This document shows positions 1,772 through 60,029 of a DNA stretch of 64,000 bases, piece by piece (the stretch's first letter is position 1; each line of letters begins with the position of its first letter). Location: contig OZ024741.1 of NCBI GenBank assembly GCA_964016885.1, positions 126,356,001 to 126,420,000 of the forward strand, in the 5' to 3' direction. The notes beneath the pieces were generated by a model that made no database searches, had not been told where the DNA came from, and saw only the letters and a list, made by a program, of their open reading frames with translations. The translations under genes and the position numbers were made by a program. Source of the stretch: Eledone cirrhosa (taxonomy: Eukaryota).

Positions 1772-1888
1772 AGGAAGTACTCCCTTGACAAGTTCGTCTA
1801 TTTATTCACCAGGCTAAAAATTCTAATTTAGTCCAGAAATAGCCGTTGAAACGGCTTGAGCTCTGCCGTCGGGGTCATACTTTTTCCT
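1772..1888 (+). ncRNA. Type I hammerhead ribozyme, U3-A8 core variant, at the 3' end of the PLE
   Basis: Core TTGACAA 1785-1791; stem II cgtctattt/aaatagccg; GAAA 1848-1851; stem III cggc..gagctc..gccg; GTC 1868-1870; stem I tccc/gggg plus aggaagta/tact..ttcct. Confidence 0.7.
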
Positions 1889-1952
1889 ATATATATATAT
1901 ATATATATATATATATATATATATATATATATATATATATATATATATACAA

Positions 1953-2160
1953 GCTTTTCTGATGATTTCTTTCGATTGCAACAGTTCTAGTCCTGTAGAA
2001 GCTATGTCTATATTATCTGTATGTGTATCCCGGGTTCAACGGGGGTAATCACAGTAAGTAAGGTAGTCAATACATAGCTGAGTATAAATGTTTAATATAG
2101 AAATGGCTTCTACAGGACTAGAACTGTTGATTTCCTTCGAATGAAAAAGTTATAGACATG
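1953..2160. mobile_element. Degenerate HHR/pLTR fragment with an internal inverted copy; a related remnant lies at 17311-17360
   Basis: CTGATGA-tttctttcgatt-GCAA (GAAA mutated)-cag...ctg-TA-gaagc. 2107-2129 is the reverse complement of 1978-2002. Confidence 0.55.
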
Positions 2161-2239
2161 TATAAGCCATATATATATATATACATATATAATTATTCAG
2201 AATAATAATAAATGAAGACATTCACATAATCAAAATACA

Positions 2240-2306
2240 TATTTTATTATATATATTTCGAAGGTACTGTGCTGTTTTTTTCAGTACGTCCTCGTCAGAT
2301 AAAATA
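2240..2306 (-). ncRNA. Type I minimal hammerhead ribozyme (inverted copy)
   Basis: Reverse complement of 2422-2488. Confidence 0.88.
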
Positions 2307-2421
2307 CATGAATTGATATATGACATACCTCAACGGTCTTGATGGTTCAATTCCAGTATTGACTGCCAATACTAGAATTGAACCATCAAGACCGTTGAGG
2401 TATGTCATACATCAATTCATG

Positions 2422-2488
2422 TATTTTATCTGACGAGGACGTACTGAAAAAAACAGCACAGTACCTTCGAAATATATATAATAAAATA
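2422..2488 (+). ncRNA. Type I minimal hammerhead ribozyme
   Basis: tattttat-CTGACGA-ggacgtactg..cagtaccttc-GAAA-tatata-TA-ataaaata; 8-bp stem I and palindromic stem III. Confidence 0.88.
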
Positions 2489-2985
2489 TGTATTTTGATT
2501 ATGTGAATGTCTTCATTTATTATTATTCTGAATAATTATAACTCCAGATTCTTGTAAAGTGCTTTTAATCTATTGTAACTCTACATTCCTTGAGTAATCA
2601 ATGAACCATATTAATCTTTGGTTATATATATATATATATATGTAGTATGTATATATTTTTTGGGACACCCTGTATATATATGTGTGTGGGTATGTATGTG
2701 TGTGTATATATGTGTATGTGTGTATGTGAACATCACTACCATCCCGACCACCACAGTACCATAATCATCGCTACATAACTCTTCCAACGACCGCCACTGT
2801 TAAATTCAGTCAAGCTTGCCTAACTCTTTCAACACACATTTACGTTTTAATAGTCTTCTTTCTTCACACAACTTTCTGTCATATATTCTTTCTTTCTCTC
2901 TTCCTTTCTTCCTTTCTTTCTTTCTTACTTTTCTCTTTTTTTTTTTTCTTTCCTTAATTTTTCTTTCTATCATTTCATCTTTCCA

Positions 2986-3191
2986 TTGCCTTTCATCCTT
3001 ACGGGGTCGATAAAATAAAGTACCAGTAATGCACTGGGATGATTGCTGGCCTTGTGCCAAATGTAGAAACAACTATTTCTCTTGGGTTGTTTGGCAGTAT
3101 CGGTAGAGCGTCAGACACCATGCTTTACAGCATAGAGTTATGGCCCTTTACCGTATGAGTTCAAATCCCACCGAGGTTAACTTTGCCTTTC
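2986..3191 (+). mobile_element. tRNA-derived SINE (family A) fragments
   Basis: A-box-like tggcagtatcggtagagcg, B-box gagttcaaatccc, and the body gcctttcatcct..gtcgataaaataaagtacc recurring across the window. Confidence 0.75.
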
Positions 3192-56280: not shown

Positions 56281-56412
56281 GGCCTCGTGCTTAACTCTTC
56301 CACCCCGCCACCCTTCAGAAACGCCAAGATTGAAAAATGAACCCAACGATTCAATTTCCAATCTTTGGCAGCAGGATTGGTAACTTTTAGCAGTTCAGAA
56401 CATGCTACTAAG
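56281..56412 (-). CDS. Candidate 132-bp internal host exon (phase 2-2), product unknown
   Basis: Acceptor cattttttag, donor gtgaga (or gtaagt 6 nt further); single open frame LVACSELLKVTNPAAKDWKLNRWVHFSILAFLKGGGVEELSTR; GC higher than the flanks. Confidence 0.45.
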
Positions 56413-56432
56413 CTAAAAAATGTGTGTACATT

Positions 56433-56690
56433 ATAGAACCAACATTTTTGTAGTGTAGTGATCGGTGTAGAACTAAATACACGTTTAGTGAAGTGTAGAG
56501 ATCGGTATAGAATGAAAGTTACATTTCTGTTGTGTAGAAATTGGTATAGAACCAAATACACGTTTAATGTAGTGTAGAAAATGATATGAAACTAAAGGCA
56601 CGTTTCTGTAATGTAGAAGTGACTAGAACTTGTTTAAAGACTGATTTCTGTAGTATAGAAATTGCTATAGAACTAAAGACATGTTTTCAT
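56433..56690. repeat. Degenerate 39-40-bp tandem repeat, about 6 units
   Basis: gtgtagaaattggtatagaactaaatacacgttt repeats at 56453, 56493, 56532 and 56572. Confidence 0.85.
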
Positions 56691-58024
56691 GTACGAAAAA
56701 CAATTTCACTGCTGTTTGAAAACAGTTGGATTCACAGGAATATATGGCTTTATAAATATATTAAGTGGAAGCATTAGTTACAACTGAGTAATTCAATATG
56801 TAATTAGAATTTAACTGAAATATTAATGTCTAAGAATGGATGAATAATACAGAATCAAGGATAAAGAGAGACGCCATTTATTAAAAGCTCTTTTCATAAA
56901 TTGAGATAGAATAAAATAATTAAACAAATTATGGAGTGTGTTTATATGTATATTATTTAATAGGTAATGAACGGTAACATTCATTGATATTGTAAGCCAA
57001 GAAATTTAATTTGATAAAAATTACCCCCCCCCCCCCCCCCGTCGCCGTCTAATGGTGAGATCAATTATTCTTTTGTGAAATGATACTGGAACATTTAATC
57101 GTTGAGAAAATATTTTATATCGTGTCATGAAATATATGAAGACTCATGGTTTAGTTATTAGGATACTTGGGTCACGAGTTATGAGTTCGATTTACTGCAG
57201 CGCATTCTTTCCTTCAATAAGACCCTTTATTTTACGTTGCTCAAGTCCAATCAACTGTAAAAAATGAATTGTAATTGTTATTTAAAAGGGCCAGCTAGGT
57301 CACAGACTGCATCATACTAAATCTCCCTAAGAATTAAATGAAGGGTTTGTGGAATGTATGCACATTAATTGCCTGAGTAGGCAGTTGATAAAACAGCAAA
57401 AACACTAGTCGTCGGAACCGACAGAGTTACACTATCAACAACAGTGAAACGTACTGTGAAAAATATTTTTTCTGAAAAACTGCATATAGAAAAACTCTAT
57501 TGGCACGTGGTAAAATTACGTAATAAAAATAGCAGACTGTGCTATAGTATTACATTAGAATAACAATAGATTAAGTCTTGGTTTTTCTCGACAGTCGGAT
57601 TTCCGATATAGTAAAGTGGAAAAAAACATGTTTTAAATTAATATGTACAATTGTGGTGTATGTATGTATGTATGTATGTATGTATGTATGTATGTATGTA
57701 TGTATGTATGTATGTATGTATGTATGTATGTATGTATGTATGTAGGTATGTATGTATGTTATCTCTTTCTCTTAATTTCGAGTATATTTTTTTGACCGGC
57801 CACCTTCCTGGTGGCAAGGTTGTAAAAGAAAAGAAATTGTAATCCCTTGAATCGCAAGAATGTTTTGCAAATTTTGAAGGTGCCAGCTATCGCAGCCATT
57901 TGTAGACTATGAATTAGGGAGCTGCGCTCTTTGTCCGCAAATGTATGTATGTATGTATGTATGTATGTATGTATGTATGTATGTATGTATGTATGTATGT
58001 ATGTATGTATGTATGTATGTATTA

Positions 58025-58662
58025 TGTCAGGTCACCAGTTGGTGCTACTGGTAACATGTATCCCAGTACAACCTGTCTCATGGTCGGGTCGTTGGCGACT
58101 AAACTGGCAACCCAACCAAGGTTTCTTGGTGAGGAGGGTGACTTTGGACATCCTGCAGGACTAAAAACAAAACCTGTCAAAGGGCAAAGGAGCTCTTAAG
58201 AGTCAATGGCCATCCAAAATCACCGGGAGAGATGACCCCTTTAGCCTTAGTCAAGGCAGAATTCTAGGAGAAGGAAAACTCTGATATAACACCTGCAACC
58301 CTGATGGTATCCAATGATGTTGACTTGTTCTTCTTTTTGGTAAATAGCATCTTGGTTAAGAGAGTGGGACTGGCTTTGTGCAGTGCCTTTGCTCACTATA
58401 AAAGCTTCACGGCACAGGCATTGCTTTATATCTGGAGATCTCTCTGCACTTGTCCTCACATGGGCCCAGCACTATGTGTCAATGATTGTCCTACCATGGG
58501 CCTAGCACTATGTGTCAATAATTGTCACAGGTGTAGTGTTTGTACCAGAGGTTTCAAGTCGGTGGCTGGACTAAAAAGTCACACTCGTTCAGCGCTTCGG
58601 TAGGGGTTATCCTACATGGATGTAAAGTAGTGGCCGTACTCGAAAACGAGTTGGCAGCCACC
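58025..58662 (+). mobile_element. Internally deleted RTE-like element between (TATG)n tracts
   Basis: RTE-type leader ending ctaggagaaggaaaactctga and a 3' zinc-finger remnant CSVCTRGFKSVAGLKSHTRS. Confidence 0.6.
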
Positions 58663-59471
58663 ATGTATGTATGTATGTATGCGTGTATGTATGTGTGTGC
58701 ATGTGTGTGTATGTATGTTGTGTGTTTGATTTCCCAGCAAGACACGTTTTCAAGTTGGTGAGTTAACTCAGCTATAAATACCCTGTAATTCAATGGGCTA
58801 GCCATGTCTCACACAATTGTTTGGCGTTGAATATCCCAGAGAATTAATTTAAGGGTATACATGTCTATGGAATGCTCAGACACGTGCATGTTAACTTCAC
58901 GAGACGGCTGTCTGATTGATGAAACAACTGAAACGTCTTTACAAAATGTCTTTTTCGCGTAAATTGAAAATATATGTTCTACGCGTTCTACACACACACA
59001 CACACACACACACACACACACACACACACACACACACACACACACACACACACACACACACATACACACACACACACACACACACACACACACACACACA
59101 TATATATATATATATATACATAATATATACATATAGATATATTATGTAATATATATATATATATATAATATATTTATATATGTATGTATGTGTATATATA
59201 TATATATATATATATATATATATATATATATATACATTTAGAAACACACAGATACATGCGGACACACACATATATACATGAATGCATCCGCACCCAACTG
59301 TGAGTTAAGGGTGCCAACTTCACCGATGTTGCTCAATGAATGACTGGGACAGACCAATTCAGTTTGAACCAGACTGAACCAGTATCAGAGTTAAAAATAC
59401 ATTATGAAGAGAGAAGAAACATTTAGATATAATTAGTAATAAAATGTATCATACCTAAACTGTTCCTAAAT

Positions 59472-59559
59472 TCCTCGACTACGTAGTTTCGTGGCATAAA
59501 CAAAAACAATATATCAAAGATATAGAGTCCTTGCGAGGTCTGCCGACTTATCAAGAGGA
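59472..59559 (-). ncRNA. Type I hammerhead ribozyme, U3-A8 core (inverted copy)
   Basis: Reverse complement of 59942-60029. Confidence 0.85.
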
Positions 59560-59941
59560 TACCTCATTTTACTAGTCTCAAGAACGCGTCTACACGACGT
59601 GAGAAAGAATCCCAAAAGGCGGAGGGGGAGATAGTCACGCGATATAACGGTCGAGAAACAGAGCTAAGCCTCTTATAACCACGAAAAAATACCACGGAGG
59701 CGGAGGGGGTATTCATATCGAGGCCGTAGAAGAGGTAGTGAAGAAGGCGAGAAGTATGAGTAATGGAAGCTTTCCAGTTGTCCCCACACTTCAAAGATTG
59801 CTCGACCAGAGGGAGTTATTAATACATTTAGAAACACACAGATTTCTCGACCGTTATATCGCGTGACTATCTCCCCCTCCGCCTTCTGGGATTCTTTCTC
59901 ACGTCGTGTAGACGCGTTCTTGAGACTAGTAAAATGAGGTA

Positions 59942-60029
59942 TCCTCTTGATAAGTCGGCAGACCTCGCAAGGACTCTATATCTTTGATATATTGTTTTTG
60001 TTTATGCCACGAAACTACGTAGTCGAGGA
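59942..60029 (+). ncRNA. Type I hammerhead ribozyme, U3-A8 core
   Basis: tcctc-TTGATAA-gtcggca..tgccac-GAAA-ctacgtag-TC-gagga. Confidence 0.85.

Follow-up and report, generated by a model that had tools for sequence, protein, structure and literature searches.

The window analysed here, a stretch of 64,000 nucleotides of Eledone cirrhosa DNA, contains six U3-A8 hammerhead ribozyme motifs of four families (A to D), the first of which lies at the end of a retroelement.

1..1886, + strand: broken Hydra-type Penelope-like element, 3' part, comprising the reverse transcriptase (RT) end, endonuclease and 3' UTR up to a (TA)n run
1774..1884, + strand: family A type I hammerhead; core TTGACAA 1785-1791 (U3-A8), GAAA 1848-1851, predicted cut after C1870; copy slightly decayed
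33773..33824, - strand: family D minimal hammerhead; core TTGAAAA 33816-33810, palindromic stem III, weak stem I
35964..36061, - strand: family B hammerhead, inverted copy; core TTGACAA 36052-36046
36565..36662, + strand: family B hammerhead; core TTGACAA 36574-36580, GAAA 36626-36629, cut predicted after A36653, stem I of 9 bp, MFE z-score -2.98
59472..59559, - strand: family C hammerhead, inverted copy; core TTGATAA 59554-59548, inside a longer C copy at 59232-59843
59942..60029, + strand: family C hammerhead; core TTGATAA 59947-59953, GAAA 60011-60014, palindromic stem III, predicted cut after C60024

At all six sites the core is followed in order by stem II, GAAA, stem III, U-H and stem I, giving the type I layout of three stems around a core that opens at stem I. 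U4 G5 A6, A9, G12 A13 A14, A15.1-U16.1 and H17 are present throughout, as is a Watson-Crick 3-8 pair, which in every case is U-A. The initial annotation had located these cores correctly, using the low coordinate for the minus-strand TTGAAAA, and had described stems, GAAA and NUH as intact. This is true of GAAA and U-H but not of the stems: three changes private to the copy at 1785 weaken its stems I and II and place its hammerhead fold 6.3 kcal/mol above the minimum free energy (MFE), compared with 0.3 for the family copy L030; stem II of family B opens with a U-U mismatch; and stem I of family D is weak. Stem III is long and stable in families A and B. In typical copies of D stem II has 3 bp and the monomer fold is unfavourable (+4.1 vs -8.0), and the D hammerhead is predicted to need a dimer. 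The window copies of A, C and D have weak MFE z-scores. A descriptor search of the window with positions 3, 7 and 8 left free, whose thresholds passed over D and the 1785 site (the latter recovered by a separate search), returned 14 matches, 10 C3-G8, 4 U3-A8 and none of any other type, against 0.1 matches per window in 20 shuffles, which rules out a chance origin of the motifs. No Rfam hammerhead model was among the best 150 of 299 Rfam matches, and almost all of these 150 were microsatellite-driven miRNA matches. U3-A8 had been called rare, a description that does not suit this genome, in 0.8 Mb of which it accounts for 12 of 95 matches.

The family A element extends upstream beyond the window, with an inverted hammerhead copy about 1 kb before base 1. 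By tblastn positions 141-1094 match a family A peptide at 86-93%, RT matches are found from base 5 and in L312, and 285-1896 is a 92% DNA match to L016. An RT and a C-terminal endonuclease of the GIY-YIG type lie upstream of the motif in families A and D. These were assigned by motifs, Pfam giving only a weak RVT_1 match in one of eight peptides, that peptide being from another family. Family A peptides contain DKT, CxCX5C, CxxC and CxH and lack CCHH, which is the definition of the Hydra clade of Penelope-like elements (PLEs), and the (TA)n ends also agree with that clade (Craig et al. 2021, PMC8557442); six homologues were retrieved, none of them bearing a name. Other PLE traits seen here are truncated copies in partial tandem and inverted arrangement, ends flanked by (TA)n and an optional tail, and in L017 an ORF begins directly after the motif. 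The family A motif ends a Hydra-type PLE. The D motif sits 3' of a PLE endonuclease that differs from that of A, and is continuous with it in L084, L063 and L075. The element class had been missed in the initial annotation: these are Penelope-like and retrozyme-like hammerheads, among which U3-A8 has been on record since 2014 (PMC4209133).

Families B and C consist of head-to-tail units, each with one type I hammerhead, spaced at 529-537 (a unit of about 530 bp) in B and 591-595 (a unit of 591 bp) in C. The C unit has no ORF, and B homology stops within about 1.2 kb, where no linked protein was found; spacing had hinted at a connection between B and a Hydra-type endonuclease, which was rejected as continuous homology is absent. 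Contigs from four sequencing runs cover the C unit and list only one letter at core positions 3 and 8. Two show the end of the unit running on into its start, an arrangement that fits tandem DNA no less than a circle, and there is no RNA run among the sequencing runs listed for this unit. Both families appear to resemble the non-LTR retrozymes (PMC7229834; bioRxiv 10.64898/2026.07.22.740005), whose units likewise stand in tandem, lack an ORF and contain a single type I hammerhead, although the B and C units exceed the reported 170-400 nt and have a U3-A8 core.

A genome-wide consensus for each family had been proposed as a check on the initial annotation, with C3-G8 as the contrary outcome. 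U3-A8 proved to be fixed in all four: it is present in 98 of the first 100 of 299 family A matches, in 79 of 80 copies of B, in 5252 of 5273 copies of C counted with sequence patterns (9 were non-U3 and 12 were U3 with non-A8) and in 11 of 13 copies of D, with C3-G8 in none of these. A readable C3-G8 sister of A was not found, the candidate having kept the 5' core in 0 of 30 loci. U3-A8 is therefore a family state and not decay of single copies. Within-family fixation reflects the source copy only, so the argument for selection rests on the pattern between families. This was surveyed in 140 stretches of 10 kb (1.4 Mb) taken at fixed steps, with positions 3, 4, 7 and 8 left free and masked when clustering, a design that detects only families whose other core bases survive. 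In an earlier clustering the tandem low-complexity clusters 10 and 12, which scored as U3-A8, and clusters 26, 27 and 31 had been left out. Of 27 clusters present in at least two loci, 21 were C3-G8, five U3-A8, none mixed and one, lying across a true motif, an artefact (Fisher p 1.5e-5 for the other 26, kinship ignored). There were no single-change families (C3-A8 or U3-G8) among the 26 in this 1.4 Mb, as against five with the double change; one U3-G8 candidate was single-copy and not a family. In all, at least eight families here carry U3-A8, among them Hydra-type elements, CCHH-type elements and tandem units. More unusual than this swap is a family outside the window, with 15,338 matches, in which core position 4 is an A without a compensating change.

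The course of the change can be followed in the sister pair F21/F25, which share one degenerate pattern with 1185 matches. The first 100 of these, counted by eye, comprise 76 U3-A8, 21 C3-G8, two U3-G8 and one C3-A8. A tree from which positions 3 and 8 were masked unites the 19 copies with U3-A8 in one clade (support 98/100) and places the single-change copies among the C3-G8 copies, with a C3-G8 outgroup; changes in stem II of the pair are compensatory. In a second tree, of endonucleases, the grouping of the seven U3-A8-linked sequences as one clade was rejected (p-AU 7.9e-6). This tree retains 24 of 39 rows and 156 columns and has long branches; F16, whose link is one copy, was dropped, and continuity from endonuclease to motif was confirmed for F7, G and D. 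Exchange of 3' ends between elements could have taken place, which is a caveat on the endonuclease tree. The two trees indicate that both bases switched in one sister pair and that U3-A8 arose more than once. The proposal that the four window families are unrelated is borne out at the DNA level, and for A and D at the protein level, while B and C have no protein by which to place them.

The U3-A8 variant has been described before. Perreault et al. (2011, PMC3088659) reported it from nature, with phages among the sources, termed it active in vitro and described the 3-8 pair as a feature of the active core. The covariation is the same as that seen here, and the U10.1-U11.1 mismatch of family B occurs there too, but their examples are several and scattered, whereas ours are retroelement copies in their thousands, with a switch that can be traced from one sister subfamily to the other. 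In PLE hammerheads of Schistosoma U3-A8 was reported in 2014 with about 1,300 matches, in the accessible text of that work without separate kinetics or a count of origins (PMC4209133). The minimal U3-A8 hammerheads of the Cercyon PLEs of Schistosoma mansoni described there share with the present families the core swap, the element class and the many dispersed and inverted copies; the present families differ in numbering at least eight and in the long, stable stems III of A and B. Since the variant has been published before, as has its association with PLEs, the present data add weight and examples and not a new kind of RNA.

The probable explanation, in our view, is that these are type I hammerheads at PLE ends and in ORF-less tandem derivatives, that the U3-A8 motifs self-cleave and that selection on source copies keeps the 3-8 pair. 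Transcripts through the terminal repeat would be cut after position 17, and the units of B and C would come free and then circularise like retrozymes. PLE hammerheads are slow according to published data, minimal ones cleave poorly in vitro (PMC4209133), and in an anole PLE cleavage requires both the 3-8 pair and the element protein (PMC11167929); the minimal motifs of C and D may be cut as dimers formed through the palindromic stem III or with the element protein assisting. The change from C3-G8 to U3-A8 probably passed through a short-lived U3-G8 wobble. The poor cleavage in vitro counts against this explanation, as do the genomic ends of A and C, which run past the predicted cut, so that templates were uncut or joined.

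It is possible, though unlikely, that the folded motif is kept instead as a structure, such as a protein-binding site, an RT pause or a template-switch signal, and is cut scarcely if at all in vivo. The anole element inserts in vitro without need for cleavage and no reads end at the cut site (PMC11167929), the A4 family thrives, and the 5' core survives in only 4 of the 50 sampled A-type 3' ends, most being broken within stem II. Against a structural role speak the description of the 3-8 pair as part of the active core (PMC3088659) and the preservation of G5, A6, A9, GAAA and U-H across the sister-pair switch, although the latter is partly owing to the design of the pattern. Neutral drift, in which dead motifs ride in source copies under a C-to-T and G-to-A bias, is already weakened and is very improbable. 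Both changes are transitions, window GC is 37%, G8 is within a CpG if N7 is C, and fixation within families does not indicate selection; but C3 lies outside a CpG, stems covary between subfamilies, and drift would yield at least as many single-change as double-change families. Least probable is a single ancestral swap that elements passed on by exchanging 3' modules, so that the several families would amount to one event, since, although D and F7 have stem III and the endonuclease clade in common and may represent one origin, and B and C cannot be placed, A to D have no DNA likeness, the closest relative of F21 is C3-G8 (score 173 against a background of about 30) and so are the nearest DNA relatives of G.

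The function of PLE hammerheads has been called unclear, with the suggestion that they may parasitize PLEs (PMC8557442). Selection on the 3-8 pair is favoured by the repeated compensated swap without a single-change family, which constitutes comparative evidence for it. The initial claim that the double change reflects selection for activity and not decay is upheld as to decay by family fixation, the lack of single-change families and repeated origin, and as to cleavage still stands as a prediction. Against it speaks a pairwise mutational scan of a single type III hammerhead, where rescue came from the G3-C8 swap alone, all other double mutants of that region scored low and U3-A8 did not stand out (PMC9901934). 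F21/F25 and family C provide ready constructs. About a fifth of the sampled hammerhead families would escape a CUGANGA search.

Hydra-type families in this genome have C3-G8, U3-A8, A4 and C4 cores, where those of the published Hydra clade are canonical (PMC8557442), and one had no convincing motif in three loci. The latter and the abundant A4 family suggest that the canonical core may be dispensable. We tentatively raise the possibility, which is less than an even one, that PLE hammerheads follow a relaxed core rule, probably through support by an element protein or a dimer, with U3-A8 fixed independently on at least three to four occasions and A4 and C4 cores cut in vivo. If this were true, the sister subfamilies that differ at 3-8 would offer a natural paired test of whether PLE hammerheads serve the element or just ride on it, and ribozymes that rank among the most abundant in genomes of this kind would go uncounted in CUGANGA-based tallies.

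All six cores reported in the initial annotation were located in the window, that of family D by reading the sequence. They belong to four repeat families (A to D) with type I hammerhead motifs, in which core positions 3 and 8 are U and A (U3-A8) rather than the C and G of canonical CTGANGA (C3-G8). These sites, with truncated relatives of A, are:

1785, plus strand: family A core
36574, plus strand: family B core
36052, minus strand: family B core, second copy
59947, plus strand: family C core
59554, minus strand: family C core, second copy
33816-33810, minus strand: family D core
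12655, 13453, 37300, 39311 and 45858, plus strand, and about 14950, minus strand: A-type 3' ends broken in stem II (also at L252-L281, loci outside the window)

A descriptor unconstrained at positions 3, 7 and 8 matched 14 times in the window (10 C3-G8, 4 U3-A8), against a shuffled background of 0.1 motif per window, the motif at 1785 being picked up at other thresholds; the host genome is 3.0 Gb and rich in microsatellites. The stems, originally described as otherwise intact, show some defects: three changes are private to the 1785 copy, whose fold is poorer than that of the family copy L030, stem II of B opens with a U-U mismatch, which has been described as tolerated (PMC3088659), and D, whose stem III is palindromic, folds poorly as a monomer. 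A second TTGACAA (1747-1753) lies about 38 bases upstream of the A core and is retained in two subfamilies (also L006, L107) despite otherwise differing 3' UTRs. The window also holds C3-G8 hammerheads of other families (2430/2298, 22609, 23669, 27790, 30953 and 1959, the last with GAAA lost), a minisatellite array of a 22-23-bp unit (about 3600-8900) and a LINE-type AP-endonuclease fragment (41892-42314, minus strand; PF14529 match below cut-off).

Exact genome patterns with positions 3 and 8 free (position 7 fixed for A and C) showed U3-A8 to be the state of every family. Family A gave 299 matches, and among the 100 listed 98 were U3-A8, one U3-C8 and one A3-A8; for B the count was 79 of 80, the other being U3-G8. 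The 5273 matches of C include nine non-U3 (all A8) and 12 U3 with non-A8, therefore 5252 U3-A8 and zero C3-G8, and these single changes, about 0.2% per site, are consistent with mutation after insertion. D was U3-A8 in 11 of 13 matches (one G3-A8, one A3-A8) and in 28 of 31 best-hit loci, which are biased to the query. Such fixation within a family mirrors the source copy and alone is no proof of selection.

Families were compared in a sample of 140 stretches of 10 kb taken at fixed steps. The first 80 gave 95 matches (77 C3-G8, 12 U3-A8, 6 other; 6.4 expected by shuffling). Clustering of 382 matches, with positions 3, 4, 7 and 8 free and masked, yielded 27 clusters present in at least two loci (21 C3-G8, 5 U3-A8, one artefact) in a survey blind to families with decayed cores, and none of these 27 was C3-A8 or U3-G8 (Fisher p 1.5e-5 on cluster states, uncorrected for kinship). 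Addition of targeted loci brought the U3-A8 families to eight (A, B, C, D, F7, F16, F21, G).

In three loci the family D motif and a CCHH-type endonuclease belong to one uninterrupted element, which resembles Neptune-type elements. The A motif lies ~700 bases downstream of an endonuclease with CxCX5C, CxxC and CxH and without CCHH, preceded by a reverse transcriptase (RT) with DKT. This set agrees with the definition of the Hydra clade of Penelope-like elements (PLEs; PMC8557442), a label assigned by motifs because Pfam hardly detects these proteins and their homologues are unnamed. C is a 591-bp unit without an ORF, in tandems and inversions, and B, for which no protein link was found, has units about 530 bp long; both look like non-LTR retrozymes (PMC7229834; bioRxiv 10.64898/2026.07.22.740005). 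A-type 3' ends are very abundant, break inside stem II, a truncation or template-switch hotspot within the ribozyme, and are often folded back as inverted repeats; the 5' core is kept in 4 of 50 sampled, and one subfamily keeps it in 0 of 30. A Hydra-type PLE that is still largely intact (46010-54016; RT 49375-50772, endonuclease up to 51638) lies within nested inverted repeats and has C3-G8 hammerheads at 52641/47462 and 53926/46100.

Up to four unrelated families had been proposed, and no DNA likeness above background was found among A to D; B and C are unplaced. The sister families F21 (U3-A8) and F25 (C3-G8) have 1185 matches jointly, and the 100 listed, counted by eye, comprise 76 U3-A8, 21 C3-G8, two U3-G8 and one C3-A8. 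In a tree of 30 copies and three outgroup copies with positions 3 and 8 masked, the U3-A8 copies form a single derived clade (98/100, from a bootstrap that had not fully settled), and stem II changes in this switch are compensated. A related tandem array at L140 (minus strand, 6619-9719), built from 11 copies of a C3-G8 hammerhead unit of 310 bp, has the classic retrozyme layout. The nearest DNA relatives of G are C3-G8, and a single clade was rejected for the seven U3-A8-linked endonucleases among 24 rows (p-AU 7.9e-6; endonuclease-motif links checked). The sister-pair switch, the relatives of G and the endonuclease tree therefore indicate several separate double changes, at least three and probably four; D and F7 may share one origin.

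RNA read through the terminal repeat would fold the motif and be cut 3' of position 17. With their long stem III, A and B would do so as monomers, whereas C and D, in which this stem is short and palindromic, would cut as dimers or with the element protein; source copies without the 3-8 pair would fail to found families. In favour of this, natural U3-A8 hammerheads have been described as active (PMC3088659), and in one PLE hammerhead a single change at 3 or 8 abolishes cleavage while the double change partly restores it, only with protein (PMC11167929). Against it, insertion did not need cleavage (PMC11167929), minimal PLE motifs are slow (PMC4209133), only G3-C8 rescued when one type III hammerhead was mutated pairwise (PMC9901934), and a Hydra-type PLE family with core C3-A4-G5-A6-A7-G8-A9 and intact stems thrives with 15,338 exact genome matches. 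This A4 family, the largest sample cluster and absent from the window, has CAGAAGA in 96 among 100 matches listed and U4 in none of those; its motif lies, for example, about 950 bases downstream of the endonuclease at L194 (minus strand). Small C4 families (CCGATGA) and possibly another A4 family (CAGATGA, 3 loci) were also seen (L091 minus 7735, L100 plus 5736, L012), and one Hydra-type family, in which 727 aa are open (L093, L220, L212), lacks a convincing hammerhead in the 2.2 kb that follow.

A literature search of partial coverage found no paper on natural A4 cores or on U3-A8 arising repeatedly in a single genome. U3-A8 itself has been known in natural hammerheads since 2011 (PMC3088659) and in those of PLEs since 2014, with about 1,300 Schistosoma matches (PMC4209133), and the families described here add to this published variant. 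Their U3-A8 motifs are real and family-fixed, and are likely to be under selection.
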